Origin: Candidatus Levyibacteriota bacterium
GTDB taxonomy: Bacteria > Patescibacteriota > Microgenomatia > Levybacterales > UBA12049
DNA length: 64,000 nt
Direction of reading: 5' to 3'
Assembly: GCA_016182185.1 (NCBI GenBank)
Contig: JACOXU010000001.1
Location: 402,915-466,914, forward strand
Shown: positions 26,538-46,000 of the stretch, in pieces
Position numbering within the stretch: the stretch's first letter is position 1
How the letters are laid out: each line of letters begins with the position of its first letter
Position numbers and translations under genes: made by a program
Notes under the pieces: generated by a model
What the model was told of the DNA's origin: nothing
The model's input: the letters and a program-made list of their open reading frames with translations, nothing else
Databases searched by the model: none

Positions 26538-26547
26538 AATTTATTTT

Positions 26548-26733: not shown

Positions 26734-26735
26734 GT

Positions 26736-27296: not shown

Positions 27297-27300
27297 AATT

Positions 27301-27606: not shown

Positions 27607-27610
27607 ATTT

Positions 27611-28420: not shown

Positions 28421-28422
28421 AT

Positions 28423-28830: not shown

Positions 28831-28831
28831 A

Positions 28832-29506: not shown

Positions 29507-29897
29507 TTGTTTTCTTTAATTCTGTTTCTTTTTTTATTTGAGATTTGGAATTTGATATTTGAACTTTATCGTCCATAAGGACGATTCTTATATGACTCGT
29601 CCTCTTTTTATACGGATGTATTCTTCCGCGAGTTGAAGGATGATATCTCTTAAAGGCAGGGCCAGGACTTATTTCAATGCTTTTTACAATAAGATTTTCT
29701 TTCTTGGCACCCTTATTTATAGCATTAGCCAGAGCACTTTTAAGTGTTTTTTCAATAGCATCTCCCCCTCTTTTTCTTACTAAAATAAGAGAGTCAAGCC
29801 AAGCATCAACCGATTGTTTCCTGCGAAACGCATCGGCAACTAGACCTACTTTTCTAGGGGCTATTCGAACCCCCTTTGCTACTGCTATATATTCCAT
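29460..29897 (-). CDS. rplV: 50S ribosomal protein L22
   Basis: L22 fold with a C-terminal Lys/Glu-rich tail. Confidence 0.85.
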   Translation of the reverse strand: MEYIAVAKGVRIAPRKVGLVADAFRRKQSVDAWLDSLILVRKRGGDAIEKTLKSALANAINKGAKKENLIVKSIEISPGPAFKRYHPSTRGRIHPYKKRTSHIRIVLMDDKVQISNSKSQIKKETELKKTNEKQEAKGEKDGSKS

Positions 29898-29903
29898 AAT
29901 TCC

Positions 29904-30188
29904 TTAAGTTTTACTTATTTCTCTGGCCACAACTCTTCCATGACTTCTGAATGCTCGGGTTGGAGAAAATTCTCCAAGCCTGTGTCCGACCATTCCTTCT
30001 GAAATAAATACATTGATAAAGTTTTTTCCGTTATGTACAGCAAGTGTATGGCCGACAAATTCGGGTGGAATCTGAGATGCTCTTTTCCACGTTTTGATAG
30101 GAGATTTATCTCCCGTTTGCTTCTGTGCCATAACTTTTTTCATGAGTTTTGGGTCTATAAACGGCCCCTTTTTACTGCTTCTTGACAT
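29904..30188 (-). CDS. rpsS: 30S ribosomal protein S19
   Basis: [19 protein letters not shown]... Confidence 0.95.
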
Positions 30189-30928
30189 TATTTCTTTCTC
30201 CTTTGCACTATGTATTTATCTGAATATTTTTTCTTTTTTCGGGTTTTTCCAACAGCTGGCCTGCCATAGAACGTTTTTGGTGTTGACATACCGATTCCTG
30301 ATCTTGCTTCTCCTCCTCCATGTGGATGGGATCTTGGATTTTGAGCAACTCCCCGAACAGTAGGCCTTATTCCCATGTGTCTTTTTCGTCCGGCCTTGCC
30401 AAATACTTCATTTTTCCAATTTACATTACCCAGGTTCCCTACTGTAGCGTAACCTTTGTCTTTCACTTTTCTTATTTCTCTGGATGGCAATTTAAGATGC
30501 ACATATGTTCCTTCGTGTGCCGCAACAATCGCGCTCGTTCCGGCTGATCTTGCTAATTGTCCGCCACGTCCTGGAGTAAGCTCGACATTGTGAACCACTG
30601 TACCAATCGGCATTACATAAAGAGGCAGGGTATTGCCGATTTTAATTTCTGCGTCTTCGCCTGAGATAACAAGATCATTTAATTTAAGCCCTTCAGGACA
30701 AAGAATGTATCTTTTTTCTCCGTCATCGTATTGGATAAGAGCAATATCACAAGTTCTGTTTGGATCATATTCAATCGCTACGACTCGCCCTTTGATTCCG
30801 ATCTTATTTCTTTTAAAATCAATCACCCGCATAAATCTTTTATGTTCTCCGCCCTGATGGCGAACGACAACCTTTCCGGATACATCTCTTCCTGATCTCT
30901 TTTTTTTAATAAATTTTAATTTTCTCAT
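30188..30928 (-). CDS. rplB: 50S ribosomal protein L2 (lacks about 30 N-terminal residues relative to E. coli L2)
   Basis: ...[21 protein letters not shown]...[14 protein letters not shown]... Confidence 0.95.
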
Positions 30929-30933
30929 ATTTT

Positions 30934-31233
30934 TTAGCCTTTCTGCGCTGCTACATCGAATACATCAATTTTTTGGCCCGGCTTAAGCTTTACCTTTGCC
31001 TTTTTCCAAGACGAACTTAAGACTTCTGTTCTTTTTGTTCCGTATCTTCTTTTTTTACCCTTAACGATATTGGTGAATACCTTGACCACATTGACTTTGT
31101 ATCTTTTTTCGATCTCCTTCTTAATTTGTTTTTTATCTGCGTTTTTGGCCACACGAAAAGTAAATTTCCCGGCTGATGCCTCGCTCATTGATTTCTCAGA
31201 AATTACCGGTGCAGTTATTATATTCTGGTACAT
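30934..31233 (-). CDS. rplW: 50S ribosomal protein L23
   Basis: A 99-aa protein in the conserved position, with an L23 fold. Confidence 0.8.
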
Positions 31234-31234
31234 A

Positions 31235-32029
31235 TTAATTTTTCTCCTTCAGAAAATTTTCTTTAATCTTGTCTATTGAATCCTTCATCAAAACCACAGA
31301 ATTTGCTTCTAAAATTTCATATGTATTAATAAGATTTGCACTTACTACGTCTATGCCTTCGAGATTCCTTGCTGCTCTATAAATGTTTTCCAGTCCATTT
31401 TTTGCAGGGCTTGGAACAATTAGAAGCACCTTTCTCTTTTTTTGATCAAATCCTAATTTTCCGAGCGTTGAGTTCATTTGTTTAGTCTTTGGCTCAATTT
31501 TTTCAAGCCCTGCAATTATTTTTACACTTCCGGTATTTTGCTTTAAAGACAAAGCAGAAAAAAGTGCTACTTTCTTCATTTTCTTGGAAAGCTTAAGCGA
31601 ATAATCTCTTGGCTTTGGTCCAAATACTACACCGCCGCCTACAAAAATTGGAGCTTTTCTTGATCCGTGTCTTGCGCGACCAGTTCCTTTTTGCCTCCAT
31701 ACTTTTTTGGTTGATCCCGTAACTTCTCCTCTTGTTTGAGTCGATACAGTTCCTCGTCTTTGATTTGCTAAGTAAACTCTTACGGCTTGGGCCATAAGCT
31801 GGTTATTTATCTTGGCTCCGAAAATTTCCTTAGGTAAAGTTACTCTTGAAACTACCTTTCCTTGCGTGTTATAGACCTGAGCTGAGAGACTCGGGCTTTT
31901 GGCGGAAGGGATTTTTGTAACCGCCTTTTTGACAACTTCTTTCTTCCTTTGAGCAACTTTTGACTTTTCACTTTTTCCGCCAGAGGCGGATTGGCTTTTG
32001 GCCGGAACTTTTGACTTTTTAGCTGGCAC
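31235..32029 (-). CDS. rplD: 50S ribosomal protein L4 with an N-terminal Lys/Ala/Ser-rich extension of about 45 aa
   Basis: ...RQKGTGRARHGSRKAPIFVGGGVVFGPKPR... Confidence 0.85.
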   Translation of the reverse strand: MPAKKSKVPAKSQSASGGKSEKSKVAQRKKEVVKKAVTKIPSAKSPSLSAQVYNTQGKVVSRVTLPKEIFGAKINNQLMAQAVRVYLANQRRGTVSTQTRGEVTGSTKKVWRQKGTGRARHGSRKAPIFVGGGVVFGPKPRDYSLKLSKKMKKVALFSALSLKQNTGSVKIIAGLEKIEPKTKQMNSTLGKLGFDQKKRKVLLIVPSPAKNGLENIYRAARNLEGIDVVSANLINTYEILEANSVVLMKDSIDKIKENFLKEKN

Positions 32030-32993
32030 TTTCTTTGTCCTCCTTGCTTTCTTTTTCCTCCGATGAATCGTTTGTTTTTGTGGCGATAGGCGTTTGTCCA
32101 GTTTCAGGTGAATCTAAATTCGACCCAAGGCCTTCTTGTTTTTCTTTTACCTCGGGTGTCTGAATTTCGCTTAGCGAGCCAGAATTCTCTCCTGTTTTAT
32201 CCTCAGCTTGGCGAGCGTCACCCGAAATCTGCGGTGAACGACTATCGCCATTCTCTTCTGGCTGACTTGCCGAAGCTTCTACTTTTTCTGTTTGAGTATT
32301 TTCTAATTCTTTATTTTCAGTTTTTTCTTCCTCAGTCTTTTTACTTGTTCCATATAATGGTACAAATTTTTTGTTTTCTCCAACTTTGGTAACCATTATC
32401 AAAGTATTTTTCCCTCCAGGAACAAGCCCTTTGATAAGAAGTGTGTCTTCCGAGACTCCGACAACTTCCAGATTTTTGATGGTTACTCTTTCATGCCCCA
32501 TTCTTCCTGCCATTCTTTTGCCTTTGTAAACTCTCCCCGGCGTGGTTGTTTGCCCGATGGAGCCGGGTGCTCTTTCTCTGTCTGACTGACCGTGAGTGCG
32601 AGGCCCTCCCTTGAAATGGTGTCTTTTGACAACTCCTGCGTAACCTTTTCCCTTGGAAACCCCTGTCACATCTACGATGTCGCCTAGTTTGAAGATTTCA
32701 GTGGCGCTTATTACTGCTCCAATTTCTGGAACTTCTCCATTCTCAACTTTGACCTCTCTCAAAAATTTAGGGGCAGATTCTAAGTTTGCCCCTTTAATGT
32801 GTCCCACTAATGCTTTGCTTGCGTTCTTTTTGATGCCGAGTCCAAGTTGCAAAGAAGAATAATCGTGTTTGTCTTTGGACTTAATAGCTACAACCGTATT
32901 CCCTGCAACCCACAAACGGGTTACAGGAATTCTTGTCCCGTCATCCAAAAATTTCTGTGTCTGATCAATTTTTGTACCTAAAATTGCTTGCAT
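32019..32993 (-). CDS. rplC: 50S ribosomal protein L3 with a C-terminal acidic low-complexity tail of about 130 aa
   Basis: The start was trimmed to MQAILGTKIDQTQKF. The ORF-track N-terminus (to 33044) overlies the leader hairpin. The tail is Glu/Ser/Thr/Lys-rich. Confidence 0.9.
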   Translation of the reverse strand: MQAILGTKIDQTQKFLDDGTRIPVTRLWVAGNTVVAIKSKDKHDYSSLQLGLGIKKNASKALVGHIKGANLESAPKFLREVKVENGEVPEIGAVISATEIFKLGDIVDVTGVSKGKGYAGVVKRHHFKGGPRTHGQSDRERAPGSIGQTTTPGRVYKGKRMAGRMGHERVTIKNLEVVGVSEDTLLIKGLVPGGKNTLIMVTKVGENKKFVPLYGTSKKTEEEKTENKELENTQTEKVEASASQPEENGDSRSPQISGDARQAEDKTGENSGSLSEIQTPEVKEKQEGLGSNLDSPETGQTPIATKTNDSSEEKESKEDKESAS

Positions 32994-33028
32994 ATATGTA
33001 TTTATCCTGAGCCTGCCGAATGGACAAC

Positions 33029-33056
33029 AAAAAAAGCGACCCACTTAGAGTCGCCT
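33029..33056 (-). terminator. Attenuator-like or terminator hairpin in the rplC leader
   Basis: The minus strand reads GCGAC-tctaagtgg-GTCGC followed by TTTTTTT. Confidence 0.4.
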
Positions 33057-33133
33057 GATCTCTTTCGAAACCTGAGTCACTCTTCTATGTGGTCAAAGTT
33101 TCCTCCATTGCCCTATTCATCAGAATTAAAAGT

Positions 33134-33162
33134 ATTATATAACGAAGCCAAAACAAATGCAA
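33134..33162 (-). promoter_or_regulatory. Candidate sigma70-type promoter upstream of rplC (TTGCAT-17-TATAAT)
   Basis: The hexamers are read on the minus strand between the YkgJ-like gene and rplC. Confidence 0.4.
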
Positions 33163-33177
33163 TACGAGGATTAGAAA

Positions 33178-33726
33178 TTAACTTACAGGAAGTTCCCGAA
33201 GAATAAAGGTGTTTAAGGGTGTAGACGGTTTTCTACTGACATTACTTCTGATAAATACGCTTTTCAAAACAACTTCTGCCGGAACTTCAGCTTCACCATC
33301 TACTGCGAGCGCGCAATCTTTGCAAGAAAATGTACCAAGGTCGCGAGTCTTTATTGTAGCTTTAGATCCCTTCGCCATAGCTCTAATATCTTCATCGACA
33401 TTTAATGGAATGCCGCCATTCCCATGCTGAATACAGTGAACTGGCCTATGGGGATAAATCGTGCACTTTTTATCCCTTCCTAAAAATGGGCACTGAGTTA
33501 CTTTAGGATCTTTTGCTCGTCTCTGAGCTCGCTTAACGACCCACTTTTTAATATCTCCTCTTGCTAAAGCATCGCTAATTATTTTTTTGTCACCATAAAC
33601 CATACTAACGTTTGCCTTGCAGCATCCGCCATCTATCCCTTTACAAAAATTATATTCTCTGAAAGAGGAATCAAATCGTTCAACTTTTTCTCGAAATTCC
33701 GGGTACTCAATTTCAGGCACACGCAT
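33178..33726 (-). CDS. YkgJ/UPF0153 family Cys-rich protein (putative zinc- or iron-chelating domain CxxCxGxCC)
   Basis: CKGIDGGCCKANV ... CPFLGRDKKCTIYPHRPVHC matches the PF03692-type pattern. Confidence 0.6.
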   Translation of the reverse strand: MRVPEIEYPEFREKVERFDSSFREYNFCKGIDGGCCKANVSMVYGDKKIISDALARGDIKKWVVKRAQRRAKDPKVTQCPFLGRDKKCTIYPHRPVHCIQHGNGGIPLNVDEDIRAMAKGSKATIKTRDLGTFSCKDCALAVDGEAEVPAEVVLKSVFIRSNVSRKPSTPLNTFILRELPVS

Positions 33727-33744
33727 AACAATCTCCTTGGAAGA

Positions 33745-34053
33745 TTACATTTTTATTTCGATGTTGACTCCGGCAGGAAGCTCCAGATGGGTTAGGGAAT
33801 CGATTGTTTTATCCGTCGGAGAAACTATATCGATCAATCTTTTGTGAACTTTTATCTCGAAATGATCTCTGGCATCTTTATCGATAAATGGGGATTTGTT
33901 GACTGCGTAGACGCTTCTTTGTGAAGGAAGAGGCACAGGACCTATGACCTTTGCACCTGTCCTGATTGCAGTATCTAAGATCTGCTGACAGCAAAGGTCA
34001 ATTACCCGGGCATCATAACTTTTTAAACGTACTCTAATCCGTCCTTTAGGCAT
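33745..34053 (-). CDS. rpsJ: 30S ribosomal protein S10
   Basis: MPKGRIRVRLKSYDARVIDLCCQQI... Confidence 0.9.
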   Translation of the reverse strand: MPKGRIRVRLKSYDARVIDLCCQQILDTAIRTGAKVIGPVPLPSQRSVYAVNKSPFIDKDARDHFEIKVHKRLIDIVSPTDKTIDSLTHLELPAGVNIEIKM

Positions 34054-34106
34054 TCAGCTATTTTACTATAAGAGGGGTAATTATTCAAGAAGTATGTGAG
34101 AAAACA

Positions 34107-34406
34107 TTAATTACTGACGGGCTCTCTGTGGCCGGCTGAAAATACTTCAGGAGTCTTCTTGCTTCTTTCAAAAATCACTCCCGATTCCAATAGCTGACCC
34201 TCAAGTTCAGTCGGATAATATAGTTTTGCTTCTCCGGGTCTATCCACATGCGTGTCAAAAACTATAAACATCGGTGTTTTAGTTTCACCGATTGTGTATC
34301 CTTCAGTATTAGTCTCCAATACTTCTCTATTGATGCTATCTTTGTTGCTTCTTACAAATCCGATAAAAGCTTGAGATTGTTCTTTGGATAAATGTGCTTC
34401 CGGCAT
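34107..34406 (-). CDS. Small hypothetical protein, paralog A of the tuf-rpsJ array
   Basis: A 99-aa protein starting with MP and carrying a C-terminal GVIFE motif shared with paralogs B, C and the broken copy. Confidence 0.45.
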   Translation of the reverse strand: MPEAHLSKEQSQAFIGFVRSNKDSINREVLETNTEGYTIGETKTPMFIVFDTHVDRPGEAKLYYPTELEGQLLESGVIFERSKKTPEVFSAGHREPVSN

Positions 34407-34412
34407 AATAAT

Positions 34413-34748
34413 TTATTTAAGAATTCCCGGATTATTTAGGGACTGGGAGTCTTCCTCGGTAAACGAACATATAGAATCCATGCTTGGCCACCTTGAAGAT
34501 TCAAAAATCACTCCGGCTGTTTTTAATTCCTCCGCATGTCTTTCGCTAACATAGAAGCTATCAAATCTTTCTCGATCATTAGACCATAAAACAATAGGCT
34601 CCCCGTCAACCTCATAAATCCTGGCTGCATGATTATGGGGTATATTTGAAGAAGTCAAAAAATTTCCCCTACCTTGGTGAAGCTTTCCGTAAATCCAGCC
34701 ATTTAGTTTATCAAATTGTTGTTCTGTTTCGATTTCAATCCTCGGCAT
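34413..34748 (-). CDS. Small hypothetical protein, paralog B of the tuf-rpsJ array
   Basis: A 111-aa protein carrying YEVDGE and AGVIFES motifs. Confidence 0.45.
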   Translation of the reverse strand: MPRIEIETEQQFDKLNGWIYGKLHQGRGNFLTSSNIPHNHAARIYEVDGEPIVLWSNDRERFDSFYVSERHAEELKTAGVIFESSRWPSMDSICSFTEEDSQSLNNPGILK

Positions 34749-34749
34749 A

Positions 34750-35000
34750 TTATTCTCTACGAAATTGTCCCGTCAAGTGAGGATCAAGCGTCATTTTTGC
34801 AAATTTTGATCCAGGAGCTTCGTCTGTTGCACTTTCGCTTTCAAAAATTACCCCTTTTTCTCCTAGTGTCGTTTCTATTTCATCCAATACCTCTTGTTCT
34901 CCAAAAACCCTTTGTCTACCTCCTCAACAAGATGGCTTTTTATTTTCTCAAATTTACCAGTTAATCCGCCATTTTTGTTATCAAATTCAATTGTCGGCAT
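34750..35000 (-). pseudogene. Frameshifted member of the small-paralog family
   Basis: The sequence is MPTIEFDNKNGG...ENKRYWMK* and then continues in a different frame as ...EIETTLGEKGVIFESE...GQFRRE*. Confidence 0.45.
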
Positions 35001-35002
35001 AA

Positions 35003-35290
35003 TTAAACAGAGTCTCCGTTGAGATCGTAGATTACTCCTCTTTTTTCCCTTAATTGATCAGCGGCTCCCTCACTTACGATAGCTTTCTCCCACCTATGAA
35101 TAATTCTCGTGTCCACTTGAACACCTAGCAATTCTCCATCAACCTTATATACTTCCAGAGCATTCCCGTTATCCAAAAAGCCCCTTAAAAGATGCTCTCC
35201 TTGCCCTGACTCAATTTTGTCATCAAGCCATTCTCTGAAAGCAAGTCTTTGCGGTTCGTTTATTAAGCTTAATTCTTTAAATGGCGGCAT
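35003..35290 (-). CDS. Small hypothetical protein, paralog C of the tuf-rpsJ array
   Basis: A 95-aa protein carrying YKVDGE and RGVIYD motifs. Confidence 0.45.
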   Translation of the reverse strand: MPPFKELSLINEPQRLAFREWLDDKIESGQGEHLLRGFLDNGNALEVYKVDGELLGVQVDTRIIHRWEKAIVSEGAADQLREKRGVIYDLNGDSV

Positions 35291-35295
35291 AAAAA

Positions 35296-35631
35296 TTATC
35301 CTATCTCTCCTGTTGATCCATTATGTTTTGTGTTGACAACCGTTAAGGTACCATTAATACCATTAATTTCTAATTTTTGACCTTCTTGGTCAAGAAGGAA
35401 AATGTTTTTTTTATTATCTCTTAGATAGCCCTGGCTTAATATTTTTCCACCCCTTAGTCTATTTAGATATCCCAAATTCTCGCCCGTCACATCAACAACA
35501 GTGCTTAAATCGCTAGAAGAAACATTGGCATCTATTGAACCGGCTACAAATTTTTTTTCATCGCCTGAATGGACTTTAGCGCTTGAGGACCCTTCTCCAA
35601 ATTTGAATATTCCTATTTCTGCTGGTGCCAT
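35296..35631 (-). CDS. Small hypothetical Gly/Ser/Asn-rich protein (first gene of the array operon)
   Basis: A 111-aa protein with no clear similarity to A, B or C. It lies 5 nt upstream of C on the same strand. Confidence 0.4.
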   Translation of the reverse strand: MAPAEIGIFKFGEGSSSAKVHSGDEKKFVAGSIDANVSSSDLSTVVDVTGENLGYLNRLRGGKILSQGYLRDNKKNIFLLDQEGQKLEINGINGTLTVVNTKHNGSTGEIG

Positions 35632-35645
35632 AAATATAAAAATGA

Positions 35646-35673
35646 TTATAAACCTAAAAAATAAAAAGTCAAG
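35646..35673 (-). promoter_or_regulatory. Candidate promoter for the small-ORF array (TTGACT-16-TATAAT, 13 nt before the ATG)
   Basis: The hexamers are read on the minus strand. Confidence 0.35.
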
Positions 35674-35740
35674 AATAGAATAGACTAAAATTGTTAAATT
35701 GTTCGATTGTTAAATTATGCAATTCTTATAGTTGCCAATT

Positions 35741-35893
35741 CGAAGTTGAATGCATGAGAGATTAGACGAGTGATTCAGGGGGATTCCTTGTTTATCAAGG
35801 AGGGGGTGAAATCCCCCGAAGAAGAAGTTTAACTTCGAAAGCATGAAACAAGGCTTGGCAAGAGTTTTTGGTACTTTTGTCAATACAAAAGTA
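35741..35893. other. Structured RNA-like element of about 120 nt with a closing helix and internal hairpins, followed by a perfect 9-bp hairpin
   Basis: TTGCCAATTCGAAGTT pairs with AACTTCGAA...TTGGCAA. Internal hairpins are CCTTG-tttat-CAAGG and GGGGG-tgaaat-CCCCC. The trailing hairpin GTACTTTTG-tcaata-CAAAAGTAC lies at 35870-35893. Confidence 0.3.
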
Positions 35894-35940
35894 CAAAGAA
35901 AGTAAGAATGTTATATTAAAATGAAGATTTTAAAGGAGGT

Positions 35941-37128
35941 TTAGGCAATTACCTTCGTGATTACTCCTGCGCCGACGGTTTTTCCGCCTTCCCGGACTGC
36001 AAATCTGAGTCCTTCTTCCATAGCAACAGGGACGATGAGTTTGACTGTCATTTTGGTGTTGTCACCAGGCATGACCATTTCAACTCCTTTAGGAAGTGCG
36101 ACTTCTGCTGTTACATCGGTTGTTCTTATGTAAAATTGCGGTCTGTAGCCTGTAAAGAACGGTGTGTGGCGTCCGCCTTCTTCTTTGGTCAGGATATATA
36201 CTTCTGCTTCAAAATCTTTGTGGGGCTTAATACTGCCCGGTTTGGCAATGACCTGTCCTCTCTCAACATCGTCTTTTTCAACACCTCGAAGAAGAAGCCC
36301 TACATTGTCTCCTGCCTGTCCTTCATCGAGTTGCTTCTTAAACATCTCAACTCCGGTTACGACTGTAGATTTGGTATCTTTGATACCGATAATTTCAACT
36401 GTCTCATTGACTTTAACGACTCCTCTTTCAATTCTCCCTGTTACGACTGTTCCTCGTCCCTTGATTGAGAAAACATCCTCAACAGGCATTAGGAACGGCT
36501 TTTCCAAATCTCTCTTGGGAGTTGGAATGTAACTGTCAACTGCTTCCATAAGAGCCTGAATTTGTTTTTCTGCTTCCGCGTCTCCCTCAAGAGCCTTAAG
36601 TGCCGATCCTCTTATAATTGGCACATCATTTCCTGGGTACTGGTATTTGGTAAGAAGTTCTCTTACTTCCATTTCAACTAAATCCAAAAGCTCAGCATCC
36701 TGAACCATATCACACTTATTCAAGAAAACTACGATAGAAGGAACCTGTACTTGATGGGCAAGAAGAATGTGTTCTCTGGTTTGAGGCATGGGACCGTCTG
36801 GAGCAGACACTACAAGAATGGCACCGTCCATTTGAGCGGCTCCTGTAATCATGTTCTTTATGTAATCTGCGTGTCCCGGAGCATCGATGTGAGCATAGTG
36901 TCTTTTCTCAGTCTCATATTCGATGTGGGTAATATTAATTGTAACTCCTCGGGCTTTTTCCTCGGGAGCATTATCGATATCTTCATATTTCTTGGCTGTT
37001 GCTTTACCTGCTTTGGCCAAAACAGTAGTAATTGCCGCAGTAAGCGTAGTTTTACCATGGTCAACGTGACCGATTGTACCGATATTTACGTGTGGTTTTG
37101 TTCTTTCAAATTTTTTTGCGTCTGCCAT
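35941..37128 (-). CDS. tuf: Elongation factor Tu
   Basis: [15 protein letters not shown] and the [26 protein letters not shown] motif. Confidence 0.98.
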
Positions 37129-37184
37129 ATTTTTAAAAAAATTACAAGAAAAAAATACACCTTAACAATTTTAAGGCTAGAAAG

Positions 37185-37213
37185 AATATACATTATTTTC
37201 CTGCCTTCGTCAA
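37185..37213 (-). promoter_or_regulatory. Candidate tuf promoter (TTGACG-17-TATATT)
   Basis: Read on the minus strand. tuf is separated from fusA by two inserted genes. Confidence 0.4.
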
Positions 37214-37221
37214 GAGGGAAA

Positions 37222-37791
37222 TTAGAGTGGTAATTTTATTTGCTCAGAAGTTACATAAGCGGTATCAGGAACTATTGACAATACAAACGCAGGTCTTTCC
37301 CATGTTCGAATCTCATAAGAAATTCTACCAGAGACCACAGTATAATCCCATCTCTCATAACCATTTGTACCATCGTGCAGTATTTCTTCTCGTTTGGAAT
37401 CTTTTCCTGAATAAACTCCCATCCTGCCTGAAAGGAGTTTATGAATTGTTGGAAGATCTGTACTTCGAGATTGTCCTGCTTGCGGATAACGATTTATAAA
37501 TTGTGGGGGTCTTAAAATTCTACCCCAAAGAAGAATAAAATCTAGAGACAATCTATCTAACCTATGAATTCCTGAATATAAATGTATAATTTTGGCATCT
37601 GGTCTTATTTCAAATGAAGGATTTAATTCGACATGACTACCTTGGGCACTATAGCCAAGCCGTACAAGCTCCTTATCAGCAATTTCCTGATAATGAGGCA
37701 CAAATTCTTCTAAAATCCGTCTTGATCCTTCCCTTTGTAATTCAGGGAGAAATTGTTCCTGCCTGATTCCGGACTCAACTGTCGAAAGCAC
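37222..37791 (-). CDS. Hypothetical protein, cupin-like paralog E
   Basis: The C-terminal AFVLSIVPDTAYV is shared with the neighbouring ORF (VAVVLVIMPDTADIP). HDGTNGYERWDY is a possible cupin motif 1. Confidence 0.4.
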   Translation of the reverse strand: MLSTVESGIRQEQFLPELQREGSRRILEEFVPHYQEIADKELVRLGYSAQGSHVELNPSFEIRPDAKIIHLYSGIHRLDRLSLDFILLWGRILRPPQFINRYPQAGQSRSTDLPTIHKLLSGRMGVYSGKDSKREEILHDGTNGYERWDYTVVSGRISYEIRTWERPAFVLSIVPDTAYVTSEQIKLPL

Positions 37792-37852
37792 AGGTTAAAA
37801 GGATTCTAAGAAGATTATCTCTCCGAAATTTATCTCCCGTCAATGGGGAAAA

Positions 37853-38446
37853 TTAAGCTGCTTTTTCTTGTCGAGGGATATGAAGTTCTTCGTCAGGAAT
37901 ATCTGCCGTATCAGGCATGATTACCAAAACGACTGCAACACCTTCTGAAATTTCCGCCTGATGGTAAGTTTCCGGTGGAACCATTACATGTGGCGCTGCA
38001 CTACTCAGCGTTACAACCTTCGCACTTTCTTCATTCTCATCATCCATCACAAGATCCATGGATCCTATCAAGCTGATATAGTGCTCGACCACCCTTCTTC
38101 CTTTATACGAATGCTTATGTTCGGATGTCCTGCCGATTGATTCGCCATTCTCTTCGGGTTCCGGTTTTAAAACATAACCATAGATCCTGTAATTGTTTAT
38201 TTTTTGCTCAAGGAAATAGTGGCCGTCGGACTTATGGCCATTTGACTTTATATGTCTTTCTGTCTGTTTCTTGAAATTCAACTGGCTTATATCATCAACG
38301 ATTTTAAGCCATTTAAGAGGCTTGAAAGTAAGCTCCCTATAACCGGGTGCCAATAAATTTAAATCCTCGTGGCTCAGGCTACCATTTGTTTTTCTATTTA
38401 CTGCTTCAGGGTTTATTCCCGTATTTGTTTCTGCTCTTGCTGCCAT
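37853..38446 (-). CDS. Cupin-domain protein, paralog F
   Basis: GRTSEHKHSYKGRRVVEHYISLIG has the spacing G(x)4HxH(x)8E(x)6G. PPETYHQAE fits P-x-x-x-x-H-x-x-x as cupin motif 2. A TATAAT box lies 8 nt before the ATG. Confidence 0.5.
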   Translation of the reverse strand: MAARAETNTGINPEAVNRKTNGSLSHEDLNLLAPGYRELTFKPLKWLKIVDDISQLNFKKQTERHIKSNGHKSDGHYFLEQKINNYRIYGYVLKPEPEENGESIGRTSEHKHSYKGRRVVEHYISLIGSMDLVMDDENEESAKVVTLSSAAPHVMVPPETYHQAEISEGVAVVLVIMPDTADIPDEELHIPRQEKAA

Positions 38447-38474
38447 AAAGTATTATTATATAATTTTTTTACTT

Positions 38475-38524
38475 ATTTGGAAAATAAATTCTATATCAGA
38501 CCTCGCCAATCGGCGAGCAGGCAG
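38475..38524 (-). terminator. Hairpin downstream of fusA (CTCGCC-gatt-GGCGAG followed by a weak U-tract)
   Basis: Read on the minus strand at about 38495-38517. Confidence 0.3.
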
Positions 38525-40639
38525 TTACTGTGCCGAAACTCTTCCTGTAAAGGTAGATTTGGCAAGCATCTGCTCTTGAATATTCCTGGGAACTTCTTCA
38601 TAGTGTGACGGCTCCATATAATAGGATGCTCTTCCCTGCGACATCGATCGCAAAGTCGTGGCATAGCCGGAAAGCTCTGCCAAAGGAACCATGGCAAGTA
38701 TTATTGTAGCACGAGTCCTTTCCTCGGTTCCCAAAATTTGAGCTCTTTTGGAAGATAAATCCCCGATAACATCTCCCATAAATTCAGATGGGGTTGTCAC
38801 TTCAACTTTCATAATTGGCTCCAAAAGTGTAAGCTCTGCTTTTTTGCTAGACGCCTGAAGAGCTTGAGAAGCTGCAATTTTAAATGCCACATCAGATGAA
38901 TCAACATCATGATAGCTTCCGTCATAAACCGTAACTGTCATATCTACCATTGGGTAACCCAGGAGTATCCCATTCTCCATTGTTTCCTTGACTCCTTTTT
39001 CAACTGATGAAACAAATTCTGCCGGAATGGCTCCACCTTTTATGGCATCGACAAATTCAAATCCTTCACCTCGAGGTTTTGGCTCAACGCGCAGGAAACA
39101 ATGTCCATACTGACCACGGCCTCCGCTTTGTCGAATATATTTTCCTTCTGCTTCTGCCATTTTTTTAATAGTCTCCTTATAGGCTACCTGCGGCGCACCA
39201 ACATTGGCAAGCACGCTGAATTCTCTCTTCATTCGGTCAACCATAACCTCGAGTTGCAGTTCTCCGATTCCTGAAATAATCGTCTGGCCTGTCTCATGAT
39301 TTGTTTTAATAACAAATGTCGGATCTTCCTCCGAAAGTCTCTTCAAGGCAAAGCCTAATTTTTCCTGGTCCACCTTGGTCTTGGGTTCAATTGCCAAAGA
39401 AATAACCGGTTCCGGGAAAGAAATCTTTTCCAAAATTATCGGGGCTTTTTGATCACACAATGTATCTCCGGTAACAGTTTCTTTAAGCCCGACGAGTGCT
39501 ACGATTTCACCGGCCACCGCTTCTTTAAGTTCTTCCCTGGTATTGGCGTGCATAAGTAAAATTCGGCCGACTCTTTCTGTTTTATTTTTTGTACTATTAT
39601 GGATATACGAGCCTGATACGACTTTTCCTGAATAGACTCTAAAGTATGTAAGTTTTCCTACGTGAGGATCGATCTGAATTTTGAAGGCAAGTCCTGAAAA
39701 AGGATCCTCTGGAACTAATTTTCTTGCGATAGGCTCATTGGTCTTGGGATCTACACCATGTACTTCTTTAAGATCGACCGGTGAAGGAAGATAATCAATT
39801 ACAGCATCGAGAAGGGGTTGTACTCCCTTATTGCGGAGCGAAGATCCTGCATAAATTGGGACCAATTTATATGCGATTACCGCAGCTCTTAGAGCTTTTT
39901 TTAAGTCCTCCAGCGCTGGTTCTTCGCCTCCCAAATATTTTTCCAAAAGCGCATCATCTGTTTCGGCAATTTTTTCAATAAGTTTATGGCGGTACTTTTC
40001 TACCTCATCTTTCATATCAGCCGGGATTTCATCCGAAACTTCAAATTTGGCACCCAATTCATCTGACCCCCAGACAATTGCCTGACGGGTAAGAAGATCT
40101 ACAGTACCTTTAAATGTTTGCTCTGCTCCGATTGGCAAAACCATTATTGCAGGATTTGCACCTAGCCTGTCTTCAATACTTTTTACAGTTGCCAGAAAAT
40201 CAGCGCCGAGCTTATCCATCTTATTGATAAAGCAGAGCCGTGGCACCTTGTATTTGTCTGCCTGTCTCCAGACAGTTTCGGACTGCGATTGAACTCCTTC
40301 TTCGGCATCTAGTACTGTGATTCCACCGTCAAGAACACGCAAAGATCGCTCTACTTCTGCAGTAAAATCTACATGCCCGGGAGTATCAATAATATTTATT
40401 CTGTGGTCTTTCCAAAAAGCAGTTGTTGCGGCTGATACTATAGTAATGCCTCGTTCTTTCTCCTGCTCCATCCAGTCCATTTGAGTGGTTCCGGCATCAA
40501 TATCCCCAATCTTGTAAGTTTTTCCTGTATAAAACAAAATACGCTCGGTAGTCGTAGTTTTGCCTGCGTCAATATGGGCAATAATTCCGATGTTTCGGAT
40601 TTTGTCTAGTGTATATTCTTTTTTCTTCGTTTCCGCCAT
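38525..40639 (-). CDS. fusA: Elongation factor G
   Basis: [16 protein letters not shown] and the [21 protein letters not shown] motif, over a full length of 704 aa. Confidence 0.98.
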
Positions 40640-40739
40640 AAAAAAATAAAACTCGCTCCCGCCCTTTACGGGACGAATTTATTAAACAAAGTATAACATA
40701 TTTCCTATTCATATTCCAGACAGTGATATAATAATTTAG

Positions 40740-41465
40740 ATGAAAAGTGAATCAGTCATTATAAAGAGCGATGGACATAATCTTTCAGGAACTATTATAA
40801 AACCCGATGGAAATGAAAAGATCCCTGCAGTTGTCTTCTATCACGGCATGATAAGCCAGAGTAAACCCCGATATATTAAACGTGCAGAAGAATTAGCAAA
40901 AGTTGGAATTTCCTCTTTGTGCTTTGACTTTCGAGGCTGCGGTGAAAGTGAAGGAAAACTCGGAGAATTAACTTTGAAAGATTGGCTTGACGATTCAATT
41001 TTGGCTTTTGATTATCTTATCAATCAAGAATTCGTCGACAAAGATAGGATTGGAATAATGGGCAAAAGTTTTGGCGGAGAAATGGCAGCGCTTGTTGCTG
41101 AAAAAAGAAACGTTAGATCAATTGTTCTACATGCGCCTGCTGTTTATCCGGATACGTGGTTCGATGATAAATTTACCTGGGATGAAGAAATAAGCAGAAA
41201 AAGAAAAGAATACAGAAATTCAGAGAAAGCCCTGGATAATAATGCGATAAGAGCGATAGAAAAATTCAAAGGCTCATTATTAGTGGTAGGAAGCGAACTT
41301 GACGGTACATGTCCCAAAACTATAGTTAAAGGTTATTATGAACAGGCAGGATCAACAGACAAAAAAATCGAATGGATAAAAGGTGCCGATCATCCGCTCA
41401 AAGACGAATTCCATAACCACCAACTCACAAAACTCATGCTTGATTGGTTCTCAAAAACCCTTTGA
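40740..41465 (+). CDS. Alpha/beta hydrolase (dienelactone hydrolase / S9 peptidase-like)
   Basis: Nucleophile elbow GKSFGG, with an acid residue in ELDG and a His in GADHPL. A TATAAT box lies 7 nt before the ATG. Confidence 0.7.
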   Translation: MKSESVIIKSDGHNLSGTIIKPDGNEKIPAVVFYHGMISQSKPRYIKRAEELAKVGISSLCFDFRGCGESEGKLGELTLKDWLDDSILAFDYLINQEFVDKDRIGIMGKSFGGEMAALVAEKRNVRSIVLHAPAVYPDTWFDDKFTWDEEISRKRKEYRNSEKALDNNAIRAIEKFKGSLLVVGSELDGTCPKTIVKGYYEQAGSTDKKIEWIKGADHPLKDEFHNHQLTKLMLDWFSKTL

Positions 41466-42065
41466 CTAAATTACTGCGAGGACGGAGAAGTATTGATTTT
41501 GCCTTCGTTCTTCTTGCAAATGTCTTTGTAAAGTATCTTCCGGTGCAGCCGAAATTGAAACATGTAAAGGTAACGACCCTTCAGGTCCTTTAATAACAAA
41601 AGATGGATCATGGTTATTATAGTCGAGAAAAAATGGACCGGTTTCTCTTATCGCTTTTCCATTCTCTCCAAACATGGTAACTTTTACCACTTTATAACTT
41701 TCGGTGTGATCTGGAAAATATCTAAAATCTAACCCATATTGTTTGGCAAAGTCAGAAACTGTATCAATGGTTCGGTCGATTAATCCTACTCGCATGGCTG
41801 TATTGGCCGGTGCAGAATTTAAAATTCTAAGATCTATATCGTTTAAGGGGTGGAATCGTTTTCTTTCCGGTTTTACAGAGCTGCCAATAGCTATGACTCC
41901 TATTTTCTCTCCTTGAAAAAATTGACCGTTTTCTTGAAAAGCGGCGATTAATCTTTGGACTCTTTCTCTATCTATTCCGCTAAGAGTATCTAAATATTCA
42001 CTTGATGGAATCTCTCGTCCTCTTTTTCCTCTTACAATTTCTCCAGCTCTTTCTATAATTTGCAT
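41466..42065 (-). CDS. Polymerase-beta superfamily nucleotidyltransferase-domain protein
   Basis: IGSSVKPERKRFHPLNDIDL matches hG[GS]-x(9-13)-Dh[DE]h. It lies 12 nt downstream of rpsG on the same strand. Confidence 0.55.
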   Translation of the reverse strand: MQIIERAGEIVRGKRGREIPSSEYLDTLSGIDRERVQRLIAAFQENGQFFQGEKIGVIAIGSSVKPERKRFHPLNDIDLRILNSAPANTAMRVGLIDRTIDTVSDFAKQYGLDFRYFPDHTESYKVVKVTMFGENGKAIRETGPFFLDYNNHDPSFVIKGPEGSLPLHVSISAAPEDTLQRHLQEERRQNQYFSVLAVI

Positions 42066-42077
42066 AAGTTTAAAAAC

Positions 42078-42551
42078 CTACCACTTGAAGTGGGCGAAGG
42101 CGCGATTGGCTTCTGCCATGCGGTGGGCTACATCTCTTTTCTTGACTGCATCTCCCTTGTTTTCCAAAGCATCCATAAATTCTGCTGCCAGTTTTTCAGG
42201 CATTGTATGATATTCTTTGTTGGGTCTTGATTTCGCGGCTTGAATTATCCAGCGGATCGCAAGAGATGTTCTTCTGTCTCCTCTTACTTCAATGGGAACC
42301 TGATATGATGCTCCTCCGACTCTTCTGGCTTTTACCTCCTGTTTGGGCTCTACATTTCCAACACTTTTTTCAAAAACTTCCAAGGCATCCTGCCCCTTTT
42401 CTGAAATAATTTTCAACGCCTGGTAAAAATTTTTTTCAGCCACTGTTTTTTTGCCGTCTTTCATCAAATTATTGATAAACTTTGCCGCAAGCCTACTGTT
42501 ATAAATTTTATCAGGATTTATTTGTCTTTTTTTGGTTTTCTTGTGTCTCAT
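42078..42551 (-). CDS. rpsG: 30S ribosomal protein S7
   Basis: MRHKKTKKRQINPDKIYNSRL... Confidence 0.95.
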   Translation of the reverse strand: MRHKKTKKRQINPDKIYNSRLAAKFINNLMKDGKKTVAEKNFYQALKIISEKGQDALEVFEKSVGNVEPKQEVKARRVGGASYQVPIEVRGDRRTSLAIRWIIQAAKSRPNKEYHTMPEKLAAEFMDALENKGDAVKKRDVAHRMAEANRAFAHFKW

Positions 42552-42553
42552 AA

Positions 42554-43033
42554 TTACGCTGTTTCTGCCGGCGTAGGTGATGCCTCAGGAGCCGGTGTTC
42601 CTTGAGCGACTCTTGGAGCACTGCCTCCGCCTCGCTTGGTTCCGTATTTGCTTCTTGATTTCTTCCTTCCCTCAACTCCGGCAAGATCAAATTTTCCTCT
42701 TACAATATGGTACTTTACCCCGGGTAAATCTTTTACTCTTCCTCCCCGGACCAAAACGATTCCGTGCTCAGAAAGTGCATGTCCGATGCCCTGAATATAA
42801 GCAGTCACTTCCATTTTGTTTGAAAGTTTTACTCTTGCGACTTTTCGAAGCGCTGAATTAGGCTTCTTAGGAGTCATTGTTTTGACCAAAGTTACCACGC
42901 CTCTTTTTTGCGAGGACGGAATGTTTTTGTAGACCTGGTTTTTGGCATTAAAGAGTCGTCTTAAAGCTGTTGAACGAGTCTTTTTGATCTTTTTCTTTCT
43001 TTTTTTTCTTGCTAACTGTGATAATGTAGGCAT
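42554..43033 (-). CDS. rpsL: 30S ribosomal protein S12 (with N-terminal and C-terminal extensions)
   Basis: ...[17 protein letters not shown]...[19 protein letters not shown]... Confidence 0.95.
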
Positions 43034-43051
43034 GGCGTATGATTATAGCAT

Positions 43052-46000
43052 TTATTGCGCGGCCTCTTCAACTGCGGCTTGACCTGAATCAACCGGGATA
43101 AGACGTCCGATAATAACGTTCTCCTTAAGCCCGATCAGCTTATCTTCCTGCCCCTGAAGCACCGCTTCTGTGAGAACCTTTGTTGTTTCCTGGAAGGATG
43201 CCGCAGAAAGCCAAGAATCTGAAAATAGAGATGATTTGGTGATCCCCAAAAGAATTTGCCTTGCAGTGGCAGGCTCTCCTCCTTGAGACAGCATCTCCGC
43301 ATTGATCTCTTCAAATCTTTTTTTGGTAATAAAGTCGCCTGGAATAAGCGAAGTGTCTCCAACTGTCTCAACAACTACCTTGTCTGACATTTTTCGCAAT
43401 ACTACTTCAAAATGTTTGTCATTAATTGATATTCCCTGAGATTCATAAACTTTTTGAGCTTCTGAAAGAATGTATCTTTGAGCATCTATTAATCCATTGA
43501 TTCTGAGAATCTCCTTAGGATCAAGGTATCCTTCAGCAAGCGGAGTTCTTGCGGAAATTGTGTCCCCGTCTGCTACTTTAAGCTCTGAAGACATGGGAAT
43601 AAAGTATTCCTTCTCTTCCACCGGTTTTACTCTTGAGTTTCTTATTCTGACTATGTTGCCGTCGTCTGTTTTTTCAATGCCTACCTTCCCTGAAATCTCA
43701 GAAATTGGAGAGAGATTTTTTGGTGTTCTCATTTCGAACAATTCCTCAACACGAGGAAGTCCTTGTGTCACGTCAGACATTACTACTCCTCCGAAATGTC
43801 TGACTCTCATCGTAAGCTGGGTTCCTGGCTCTCCGATCGATTGAGCTGCCATAACTCCAACTGGAACTCCAGGATTTACTTTTTGCTTGGTTGAGAAATC
43901 CCACCCATAGCACTTGGCACACATTCCATAATCAGCCTTACATGTAAGGGGAGACCTAACAATTAATTCTTCGATTCCGCTATCATCGATTAGTTTTACT
44001 TTCTCTTCATCGATCTCTTCTCCTGCCTTAAGAATTATTTTCTTACTCTTTTTGGATGAAATATCTTTGACAGTAAATCTTCCCAAAATTCTATCCGAAA
44101 AAAGAGAAGTTCTATCAGGACTTTCTTTAAGGATTGTAATTCCATCAGTCGTTCCGCAATCTTCGCTTCTTATAATCACATCGTGAGAGACATCAACTAA
44201 CCTTCTAGTTAAATATCCTGCATTTGCGGTTTTAAGCGCCGAATCAGTAAGTCCCTTTCTTGAGCCTCTCGCACTTGCCACATATTCAAAAATTGAAAGT
44301 CCTTCGCGGAAATTGGACTTGATCGGCAGTTCAACTATTTTCCCTAAAGGATCGAGAATAAGCCCTCTCATGGCAGAAAGCTGTTTAACCTGTTCCTTTC
44401 CGGCGCGGGCACCTTCAGAGTCAATAATCATTTTGATTGGATTTTCTCCTTTCAAAATTTTCCAGGTTCGGTCGGCGAGATCATCGGTAGTTTTTAGCCA
44501 AACTTCATTACTTAATCGTTTTCTCTCTTCATTGGTGATTAATCCCTGCTGATACTCAAGCTCTATTTCCGTTATTTTCTTCTCAGCTTCTCTGATATCT
44601 TCCTCCTTCTTAGACACCATTTCATTATCAAAAACTGATACCGATGTTCCTGAAACTGTTGATCCGTAAAAACCCAAAGTTTTTATATTATCAATTAGAG
44701 CCTCTACTTCTTCATGTGAACATTTGGCGATAGCGATTGTAATAAGCTTTTTAATACCCGAGGCTTTAATGGGTGCATTAATGAAATCCAAAACTTGTGG
44801 CAATTTTTCGTTGAAAAGAATTCTTCCAACACTTGTTTCCATCAAATCTGCCTCAATTCTAACTTTGATGGGTTCTCTATATTTAATTCTTCCCAATGAA
44901 TGAGCAAGAATTGCTTCTTGAGCGGACATAAAAATGGGTGAATTTTCTTTCCTTAAAGATTCGTCAATCGTTGTAAGGTAATATACTCCGACTGCCATTT
45001 CCTTATTGGGCAAAGTTATGGGGCTTCCGTCCGCAGGTTTTAGTAAATTATGTCTTGGCATCATAAGACCGATGGCTTCTTCTTTGGCCTGGGAAGATAA
45101 AGGAATATGTACTGCCATTTGATCTCCGTCAAAATCCGCATTATATCCAGCACAGACACAAGGATGAAGGCTGATTGCAGATCCTTCAATCAGAACCGGA
45201 TAAAATGCCTGAATGCCGAGCTTATGAAGCGTTGGAGCGCGGTTTAGTAGCACCGGATGATCTTTGGTAATTTCTTCGAGGATATCAAATACCTCAGGAG
45301 GTCTTTTTTCGATATATCTTTTTGCCGACTTTATGTTTGGAGCAAATCCTCTAACTATGACCTCGCGCAAAACAAAAGGCTTAAACATTTCAAGGGCGAT
45401 TTCTTTGGGGAGTCCGCATTGGTAAAGGTTGAGCTGCGGCCCAACAACAATAACCGAACGTCCTGAATAATCAACTCTTTTACCCAAAAGGTTTTGTCTG
45501 AATCTTCCCTGTTTCCCGCGCAACATATCGGAAAGTGAACGAAGAGGAGACGAAACTACCTGATTGGAACGTTGTGATACATCAATCAATGAGTCAACAG
45601 ATTCTTGAAGCATTCTCTTCTCGTTTCTCAAGATTATTTCAGGCGCCCCCAATGAAATCAAATGCTTAAGTCGGTTATTTCTATTAATTACTCTTCGATA
45701 TAAGTCATTTAAATCAGATGTGGCAAAGCGACCTCCTGCAAGTTGAACCATTGGACGAAGATCAGGGGGAAGAACCGGTAAAACGTTGAGGATCATCGAT
45801 GACGGTGCTACACCGGCTGCCCTCATGGACTCGATAAGGCGAAGCCTCTTAATAAGCTTGAGGTATTTTTGGCCTTTAGATTTCTCTGTTTCGGTTCTTA
45901 ACTTCACAATAAGATCAGGAAGATTAATTTTATTTAAAAGATCAAGAATTCCTTCAGCTCCAGTCTTGAGGGTGAAAAAAACTGGGATATCGTATTCCAA

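Follow-up and report, generated by a model that had tools for sequence, protein, structure and literature searches.

The window analysed here is a stretch of 64,000 nt on a 617-kb contig of a metagenome-assembled genome (MAG) that the databases name Candidatus Levybacteria (Microgenomates; candidate phyla radiation, CPR); a scan of the GTDB species representatives with elongation factor G (EF-G) also placed the window in the Levybacteria. The subject is its str-S10 region, where the collinear order rpoB, rpoC, rpsL, rpsG, fusA, tuf, rpsJ, rplC, rplD, continuing into the S10-spc genes, is kept on the minus strand, and where additional genes (cargo) of 0.75-1.9 kb in total per site break the contiguity of the str and S10 operons at four junctions, i.e. 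rpsG/fusA, fusA/tuf, tuf/rpsJ and rpsJ/rplC. Most Levybacteria likewise have no contiguous str and S10 operons. We consider it likely that the cluster is divided, in this lineage, into a series of units with a promoter each, and that the four junctions are operon boundaries that tolerate insertions.

The str-S10 region of the window

The gene order was read from the listing of open reading frames (ORFs) and the translation of the window (Table 1). It is the order given in the original prediction, inserts included, except for the alpha/beta hydrolase gene, which had been put on the minus strand and is found on the plus strand, tail-to-tail with the 199-aa gene. An identical contig (L105; L numbers denote the loci of our collection) carries annotation for the genes rplC to rplO of this block.

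Per-run Logan assemblies (five runs) agree with the window at 100% identity over positions 24052-36684 and 39962-45137; these spans cover three of the four junctions and the frameshifted copy in the gene array described below. The fusA/tuf junction lies outside the spans of the Logan contigs, and an equal order recurs in relatives. The suspicion of a chimeric assembly was not borne out in view of this identity and recurrence, and the four interruptions are real.

The nine inserted genes match the genome background in GC content, GC content at third codon positions (GC3) and codon adaptation index (CAI), the last of which fails here to separate even the ribosomal-protein genes from the remaining genes. 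A foreign composition or codon usage, for which a comparison had been proposed at the outset, was thus rejected, the inserts being inseparable from the genome. The ratios of non-synonymous to synonymous substitutions (dN/dS) for pairs of cargo orthologues are 0.11-0.37, versus 0.01-0.02 for tuf and rpsJ. From native composition, the match to the Logan assemblies and dN/dS it follows that the inserts are real, native-looking and selected genes.

Table 1. Features of the str-S10 region, in the order of the cluster; positions are those of the window, and promoter and leader elements are predicted
Feature	Position	Strand	Remarks
rpsL promoter-like site	43042-43071	-	TTGAAG-18-TGnTATAAT, inside the 3' end of rpoC; -10 ends 8 nt before ATG
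rpsL	42554-43033	-	ORF; S12, 159 aa
rpsG	42078-42551	-	Upstream flank of the rpsG/fusA junction; Pfam Ribosomal_S7 on the identical gene in L081
NT199	41466-42065	-	199 aa; starts 12 nt after rpsG; no promoter-like site
ABH241	40740-41465	+	Alpha/beta hydrolase, 241 aa; convergent with NT199, 0-nt spacing
fusA promoter and leader	40640-40739	-	Extended -10 TG-T-TATACT at 40690-40698; hairpin 40657-40673; U-run 40640-40650
fusA	38525-40639	-	EF-G; 93% identical to L085
cupA197	37853-38446	-	197 aa; promoter-like TTTCCA-17-TATAAT at 38455-38483
cupB189	37222-37791	-	189 aa; promoter-like TTGACG-18-GATAAT at 37814-37843
tuf promoter and leader	37149-37213	-	TTGACG-17-TATATT at 37185-37213; hairpin 37160-37177; U-run 37149-37155
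tuf	35941-37128	-	ORF
Spacer after tuf	35632-35940	-	Non-coding 'structured element', 310 nt
Array	34107-35631	-	Five tandem paralogues; proteins of about 100 aa
Array copy D	35296-35631	-	More distant family member
Array copy C	35003-35290	-	
Array, frameshifted copy	34750-35000	-	Frameshift near 34887
Array copy B	34413-34748	-	
Array copy A	34107-34406	-	
rpsJ promoter-like site	34060-34088	-	TTGAAT-17-TAAAAT; -10 ends 6 nt before ATG
rpsJ	33745-34053	-	ORF
YkgJ182	33178-33726	-	CxxCxxCC protein, 182 aa; 18 nt after rpsJ; AGGAG Shine-Dalgarno; no promoter-like site
rplC promoter and leader	32997-33177	-	TTGCAT at 33157-33162, 17 nt, TATAAT at 33134-33139
rplC	32019-32996	-	Ribosomal_L3 match; opens the uninterrupted S10-spc block

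Variation of the junctions in the lineage

About 91 dereplicated Levybacteria lineages were surveyed, and a junction was scored as interrupted when its spacer exceeded 400 bp; a metagenome scan with S10 yielded 80 contigs at 85-98% S10 identity, which were then dereplicated. Interruptions were found at rpsG/fusA in 19 of 24 cases, at fusA/tuf in 35 of 37, at tuf/rpsJ in 13 of 83 and at rpsJ/rplC in 34 of 70, i.e. in 16-95% of lineages, versus none at the control junctions rpoC/rpsL (0/18), rpsL/rpsG (0/20) and rplD/rplW (0/50) and single cases at rplC/rplD (1/56) and rplW/rplB (1/49). The same pattern was seen in 12-13 Levybacteria representatives of GTDB, whose rpsG/fusA and fusA/tuf spacers range from <0.1 to 7.8 kb and hold mostly unrelated ORFs (104 of 131 are singletons).

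Clustering grouped the 353 cargo ORFs into 221 families; about 85% of these occur in one lineage only (42 of 50 at rpsG/fusA, 85 of 104 at fusA/tuf, 20 of 25 at tuf/rpsJ, and 45 of 51 at rpsJ/rplC), and more than 72 and more than 82 Pfam families were recorded in the two sets scanned. Ordinary cargo comprises GH18 with PIG-L, cyclophilin, Maf, D-Ala-D-Ala ligase, peptide deformylase, transporters and redox proteins; selfish or conflict-related cargo comprises rve transposases, HicB-HicA, a DNA methylase with a CfrBI-type endonuclease, HEPN, Fic/DOC and Replic_Relax. Overall, 64% of the cargo is co-directional with the cluster and 36% antisense to it, the co-directional share being 48% at rpsG/fusA, 57% at rpsJ/rplC, 70% at fusA/tuf and 83% at tuf/rpsJ.

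The synteny of relatives thus singles out, lineage-wide, the same four junctions that had been flagged in the window; exactly these vary, their neighbours do not, and their cargo is mostly non-homologous, which strongly supports the proposal that the locus is an insertion hotspot in this lineage. At these four intervals the same core genes bound many accessory families across genomes, which is the mark of a hotspot. Outside the lineage, the rpsG/fusA and fusA/tuf junctions are tight in Bacilli and other outgroups and at most Woesebacteria loci, and the Roizmanbacteria have lost the linkage of fusA and tuf altogether.

Close relatives and age of the inserts

Relatives closer than any GTDB representative were reached via homologue searches with single cargo proteins, and homologous arrangements recur in independent JGI, ENA and NCBI contigs of up to 140 kb. 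In a tree of elongation factor Tu (EF-Tu), the window groups with L085 and L087, and L090 is next. L085/L086 (EF-G 93%, EF-Tu 96% identical) have two cargo genes only, the hydrolase at 80% and the cupin-like gene at 53%, with a tuf/rpsJ spacer of 174 bp and an empty rpsJ/rplC spacer of 460 bp; the closest relative, L085, is thus without the array, cupB, NT199 and the YkgJ-like gene. In L087-L089 (EF-Tu 96%), tuf is preceded by cupA (70%), cupB (44%) and then an rve transposase, and is followed by small ORFs. L090-L093 (EF-Tu 91%) are interrupted at all four junctions; the cargo of L090 is TrpR/PNPOx/Cu-oxidase_4, a distant cupA (28%), a D-like and an A-like gene, and HicB-HicA with one further ORF, and in L091, near-identical to L090, an rve transposase replaces TrpR at rpsG/fusA.

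The inserts are therefore of unequal age. Those shared within sub-clades only, i.e. the hydrolase, cupA and the small-protein family of the array, are older, and cupB, common to one close relative, is younger; NT199 and the YkgJ-like gene are, judging from the gene content of the relatives, recent acquisitions private to the cluster of this genome. The array grew through tandem duplication of an older resident family, and was lost from L085. The original count of four independent insertions is thereby right in spirit, but the ages differ and the array D-C-pseudogene-B-A is a product of duplication.

Cargo of the four junctions

At rpsG/fusA, NT199 gave no match in Pfam or NCBIfam. It was tested against the signature of Pol-beta-type nucleotidyltransferases (NTases), i.e. 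hG[GS]-x9-13-Dh[DE]h plus NTase fold: the protein has a GS-x13-DID motif (hG[GS]x13DxD type) that is invariant in five homologues, and with its AlphaFold2 model (mean predicted local distance difference test, pLDDT, 79.5) the top 50 Foldseek matches in PDB were all Pol-beta-type NTases, albeit weak (E 2e-3 to 5e-2, TM-score 0.27-0.38); the best PDB profile match, also weak (E=0.18), was an adenylyltransferase. A Pol-beta-type NTase fold is therefore probable by motif and model, and the initial label 'nucleotidyltransferase' stands on these two and not on family databases. Homologues in other Patescibacteria (39-42% identity) lie in unrelated neighbourhoods, and NT199 was not found in the cluster of any relative examined. 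From its position it is probably co-transcribed with rpsL-rpsG.

ABH241, which separates rpsL-rpsG from fusA, is by its sequence a solid assignment as alpha/beta hydrolase, as first labelled, with matches to Hydrolase_4 (1.7e-19, 70.5 bits) and Peptidase_S9 (4.5e-16, 59.4 bits) and a nucleophile elbow GxSxG (GKSFG in the translation). Orthologues at the same site and in the same orientation were found in L085 (80% identity), L115/L116 (70-71%), L111/L112 (64-65%) and L009 (56%); dN/dS is 0.11.

The pair at fusA/tuf had been described as cupin-like. For cupA197 there is sub-threshold support, i.e. a WbuC-family cupin match (21.3 bits, E=2e-4; cut-off 42), FdtA (E=0.016) and PnbB (E=0.0016), each below the Pfam cut-off, and a weak match to cupin-type PGI (E=0.064); an HxH...E...H pattern (H110, H112, E121, H162) is invariant, and the protein is a probable metal-binding cupin on this pattern. 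Its family is confined to fusA/tuf, where it was found in eight species groups, including L001, with identities of 70% (L087), 53% (L085), 51% (L110), 37% (L111) and 28% (L090), and dN/dS is 0.11. For cupB189 the description failed: no cupin or other match was obtained in Pfam or NCBIfam, and its sole homologue is a 204-aa gene beside cupA in L087-L089 (44%); dN/dS is 0.37.

At tuf/rpsJ, the non-coding spacer after tuf has a predicted minimum free energy of -57.9 kcal/mol (z = -5.5 vs shuffles), with a 9-bp-stem hairpin at 35871-35894 and a GGGGGATT...AATCCCCC hairpin at 35778-35817; the first hairpin and the following 40 nt are kept in L099, with no covariation, and no Rfam match was found for the spacer. 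It includes a near-consensus candidate promoter of the array, TTGACT-16-TATAAT (35645-35672), kept as TTGACTTTTGG-N-TATAAT in L087, L090, L094, L098 and L099. In some relatives a different element, a hairpin of about 70 nt, lies directly 3' of the tuf stop codon (L087 3874-3955; L090 9402-9480; L098 358-440). This hairpin matches no Rfam family, shows five compensatory base-pair changes among the three sequences, and does not occur in the window.

The small proteins of the array (A-D family) are previously unannotated. The motifs MPxIE.., Y.VDGEP and SERH..ELK.AGVIFE are common to copies A, B and C and the frameshifted copy, and the repeat search found a paralogue motif of the array recurring about 335 nt apart. 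The frameshift of the fifth copy was exactly reproduced in an independent assembly of another run, so that this copy is a real pseudogene or a programmed shift rather than a sequencing error. In a word-indexed search of 5.8 billion proteins, copy B matched only itself; a four-copy profile searched against 1.84 billion representatives gave 18 matches, 12 of them small homologues of other genomes. The contexts of the family were gathered protein by protein, and a metagenome scan by alignment gave no true matches (the first alignment was too diverse, and the second gave a degenerate pattern). The family occurs in arrays of 2-5 copies, always between tuf and rpsJ wherever the context includes a flanking tuf or rpsJ, and its dN/dS is 0.13-0.30. 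The AlphaFold2 model (mean pLDDT 82.8; >90 for residues 1-85) predicts a beta-alpha-beta4-alpha fold with a disordered tail and had no Foldseek match in PDB or BFVD. A relation to the helicase-associated (HA) domain PF03457 was considered and rejected, with weak multi-stretch hmmsearch matches and an hhalign probability of 2.9%.

At rpsJ/rplC, the YkgJ-like label was confirmed, as YkgJ182 matches PF03692 above the gathering threshold (26.1 bits, cut-off 23; E=1.5e-5), and the protein is a putative Zn/Fe-binding protein. It was not found at the rpsJ/rplC junction of any relative examined, and by its spacing looks co-transcribed with rpsJ. Relatives have Fic/DOC, peptide deformylase (four lineages) and plasmid-type Replic_Relax as cargo at this junction (L113 1141-2121; L160 11632-12225; L111 10428-11231). 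The insert of L099 contains a duplicated 3' fragment of rpsJ (3426-3509; residues 75-102, 82% identity), which looks like the scar of the rearrangement that created this insert.

Promoters and leaders of the units

A promoter-like site within 60 nt of the start codon was found for 8 of the 15 genes from rpsL to rplC, versus 8 of 61 in the rest of the window. The native genes account for a conserved set. The -35/-10 pair of rpsL is kept in L085, L004, L005 and L008. The predicted fusA leader shares a divergent 100-bp spacer with ABH241, and TGnTATACT followed by hairpin and U-run also precedes fusA in L001-L006, L008, L009, L011 and L012. The tuf promoter (TTGACG-17-TGTATAxT) with its hairpin and U-run is kept in L085, L087, L090 and L001-L010, and the rpsJ element in L085, with a related TTGTAAAAT box in L090, L094 and L099. 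These promoters and leaders of native genes recur in relatives whose cargo differs.

The rplC leader is about 110 nt long and comprises a conserved box GGAGG..TTTGACCACATAGAAGAGTGAC and, at its end, a terminator-like hairpin (33034-33056) with a U-run; a hairpin and U-run within 100 nt of the rplC start were found at 10 of 10 Levybacteria loci, versus a background of 4.5%, with stem sequences that differ between species. No Rfam match was found for this leader; over window positions 32900-43200 the covariance models of Rfam 15 gave only two chance-level matches far below the gathering scores, and for the spacers of six relatives none at E<=0.1. The promoter and leader before rplC make rpsJ/rplC a likely operon boundary in the lineage. 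The leader is also a candidate attenuator, with a possible antiterminator pairing of the upstream conserved box and the 5' arm of the terminator; it is seen in L085, L090, L094, L096, L001 and others.

Among the inserts, sigma-70-like sites lie just upstream of cupA, cupB and array copies D and B, and a weaker one at the hydrolase, so the initial statement that each insert brings its own promoter holds for these, whereas no such site precedes the YkgJ-like gene or NT199.

In rpsL, rpsJ and cupA, the -10-like box ends 6-8 nt before the ATG, with no Shine-Dalgarno sequence (43033-43042, 34053-34060 and 38446-38455), and rpsL and rpsJ of relatives have the same spacing from -10 to ATG, which suggests that these three mRNAs may be leaderless or near-leaderless.

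Interpretation and alternatives

The proposed units are [rpsL-rpsG], [fusA], [tuf], [rpsJ] and [rplC onward], each of which would begin with a conserved promoter of the sigma-70 type, its -10 often extended, and a short hairpin/U-tract leader. If the cluster consists of such independently promoted units, the four junctions lie between operons and can tolerate insertions: DNA at a boundary could be gained, duplicated, replaced or lost without severing an essential gene from its promoter, and the boundaries would have become gene-turnover slots during the radiation of the lineage. Read-through cannot link the units, because the hydrolase is antisense here, as is 36% of all cargo. In this genome, rpsG/fusA would hold the older hydrolase and the recently acquired gene for a probable NTase-fold protein, fusA/tuf the older cupin-like gene and its younger neighbour, tuf/rpsJ the resident small-protein family, grown to a tandem array of five copies of which one is frameshifted, and rpsJ/rplC the recently acquired YkgJ-like gene. 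Insertion-sequence (IS) activity, tandem duplication and deletion may have driven the turnover, possibly together with recombination that uses the highly conserved flanks as anchors. Active promoters at the native genes and permissiveness through the status of operon boundary are what we infer from these data, and entry may have been IS-mediated or by homologous recombination.

Several observations weigh against this interpretation. Promoter-like sites are hardly enriched region-wide (32 in 12 kb versus 24.2 +/- 5.2 in shuffles, i.e. 1.5 standard deviations), and a strict hairpin and U-run were found before fusA at 6 of 15 loci (background 4.5%) and in tuf leaders at 3 of 14. The candidate promoters and terminator-like hairpins were identified by consensus and by conservation, and the hairpin and U-run downstream of each promoter could serve as an attenuator, as a 5' stabiliser or as the terminator of the upstream unit. 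The hotspot is defined relative to the neighbouring junctions of the cluster rather than the whole chromosome, and redundant or mis-binned lineages may remain among the metagenome contigs. Part of the cargo is not accessory, since the hydrolase, cupA and the small-protein family show stable inheritance within sub-clades. Finally, the inserts of the window have no flanking direct or inverted repeats (short chance-level repeats only), integrase or transposase that would show how they entered.

The original prediction also considered an expression platform, i.e. that accessory genes are selected at this site to borrow the high transcription of ribosomal and elongation-factor genes. NT199 and the YkgJ-like gene, between which and the preceding rpsG and rpsJ no promoter-like site or terminator is seen, fit this idea, as do the co-directional cargo at fusA/tuf and tuf/rpsJ and the near-consensus array promoter kept in relatives. 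Against it, co-direction is far from general at rpsG/fusA and rpsJ/rplC, the hydrolase is antisense, and leading-strand bias alone could yield the overall co-orientation; most window cargo has promoter-like sites of its own and thus no need to borrow, the native genes on either side of each junction have conserved promoters too, the cargo is functionally mixed, with IS, toxin-antitoxin and restriction-modification genes among it, and its CAI is that of the genome background. The platform is therefore plausible for NT199 and the YkgJ-like gene only, and unlikely as a general rule.

A bolder proposal is that the array family and the cupin-like protein are no passengers but lineage-specific factors that act on EF-Tu, EF-G or the ribosome, and that the modules of promoter and hairpin/U-tract before fusA, tuf and rplC are new autoregulatory leaders which insulate the units. 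The fixed position of the array family between tuf and rpsJ is explicable by sub-clade descent and tandem duplication and hence no proof of a role in translation, and we regard the proposal as quite unlikely.

An old, fixed and lineage-specific arrangement of conserved, possibly translation-related residents has in its favour the occurrence of the cupin-like family at fusA/tuf in eight species groups and of the hydrolase at rpsG/fusA in at least five, the restriction of the small-protein family to tuf/rpsJ, and the purifying selection on all three. The same inserts were, however, not present in all relatives: NT199 and the YkgJ-like gene occur in this genome only and cupB here and in one relative, and for these three the arrangement is refuted; L085 is without all of them and the array, L090 has different genes at rpsG/fusA and rpsJ/rplC, and most cargo families are confined to a single lineage. 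We give this explanation little credence.

Integration of mobile islands by site-specific targeting (integrase, att site or tRNA-like target) appears improbable. Mobile elements do lie in the slots of relatives, i.e. rve transposases at fusA/tuf (L087) and rpsG/fusA (L091), and HicAB, a restriction-modification pair, HEPN, Fic/DOC and Replic_Relax, besides the duplicated rpsJ fragment of L099. Most cargo of the lineage consists, however, of ordinary enzymes and small ORFs, and the window shows neither an integrase or transposase, nor flanking repeats or att sites, nor the atypical composition that would mark a mobile genomic island; no tRNA was found in the region of the inserts, and the defence-system models of PADLOC gave no meaningful match in the window.

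That foreign contigs or reads were joined inside the conserved region, as can happen in a MAG at classic sites of chimeric joins such as tuf, is hardly conceivable given the identical assemblies from five runs, similar arrangements in independent contigs, and cargo with the composition of the genome.

Relation to known systems

Insertions into the same gene cluster and a two-step disconnection of its operons have been described for Gammaproteobacteria and Bacilli (PMC8046335; see also 2019, PMC6735719), with 163 events in 204 genomes over about 2 Gy, mostly between recognised operons (PMC8046335). In both cases small sets of unrelated genes lie between the units of the same cluster (tusDCB, bfd-bfr and ilv-leu at str/S10, and nrdHEF, in the published system), transposable elements occur within the cluster, where they were proposed as drivers, and insertion is followed by full disconnection in some lineages, as the Roizmanbacteria show for fusA and tuf. 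The tight junctions of the outgroups and this disconnection fit the two-step route (PMC8046335). The present case differs in that four adjacent junctions are concerned, in 16-95% of lineages within one candidate phylum and with cargo that is nearly lineage-unique, and in that rpsG/fusA and fusA/tuf are internal to the classical str operon and rpsJ/rplC to the S10 operon. In the Bacilli outgroups, the one variable junction is tuf/rpsJ (200-5000 bp; 1302 bp in Bacillus spizizenii and B. inaquosorum) and the other three are tight (36-160 bp), whereas in Levybacteria those three are the most often occupied.

Oliveira et al. 2017 (PMC5635113) describe hotspots of horizontal gene transfer on chromosomes, with core genes at their flanks. 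These are similar in that accessory genes accumulate in few core-bounded intervals with rapid turnover and often no recognisable mobile elements; they differ in being defined within the pangenome of a species and against a genome-wide background, while the present comparison is between species and with neighbouring junctions only. Here, moreover, the slots are bordered by the most conserved genes of translation, and the cargo has no compositional mark of a foreign origin. The variable region is a lineage-wide variant of known gene-turnover hotspots, at much higher frequency.

The candidate rplC leader can be set beside a known regulatory system. The leader of the E. coli S10 operon is an autoregulatory ribosomal-protein leader with L4-mediated attenuation. 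Both have a promoter, a leader, and a terminator-like hairpin with U-run just before a ribosomal-protein gene, and an upstream segment that can pair with the 5' arm; the candidate leader, by contrast, precedes rplC and not rpsJ, belongs to no Rfam family, and its regulation is a prediction. Nothing specific was found on the disruption of str/S10 in CPR bacteria or Levybacteria, or on leaderless mRNAs in Patescibacteria, in the library searched, which is incomplete.

Other features of the window

The gene for the RNase P RNA (2392-2697, minus strand) scored highest with an archaeal model (RF00373; 86.5 bits, gathering score 84) rather than with a bacterial one, which is odd for a bacterium, even of the CPR. 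Three ribosomal proteins encoded on the minus strand are extended, i.e. L3 (32019-32996) by an acidic, Ser/Glu-rich C-terminal tail of about 120 aa, L4 (31235-32029) by a Lys-rich N-terminal extension of about 50 aa, and S12 (42554-43033; 159 aa) by a basic N-terminal and a Pro/Ala-rich C-terminal extension. The gene rpmD (L30) is not present between rpsE and rplO (window 24318-25243, minus strand; L105 11442-12367), in agreement with the known frequent absence of uL30 in CPR bacteria (PMC9297842).

Significance

The rpoBC-str-S10-spc cluster is the textbook case of a gene order frozen since before the bacterial radiation, and phylogenomic and binning pipelines assume its contiguity. Four open slots with collinear genes between them are a natural experiment on why the cluster normally stays together, and the Levybacteria would catch the route of 'insertion first, disconnection later' under way; the suggested condition for tolerance is that each unit has its own promoter and leader. 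The slots are also a concrete place to seek strain-specific genes in CPR genomes, which are otherwise poor in recognisable mobile elements, and two testable by-products arise, i.e. a small-protein family found only beside tuf and a conserved, attenuator-like leader before rplC.

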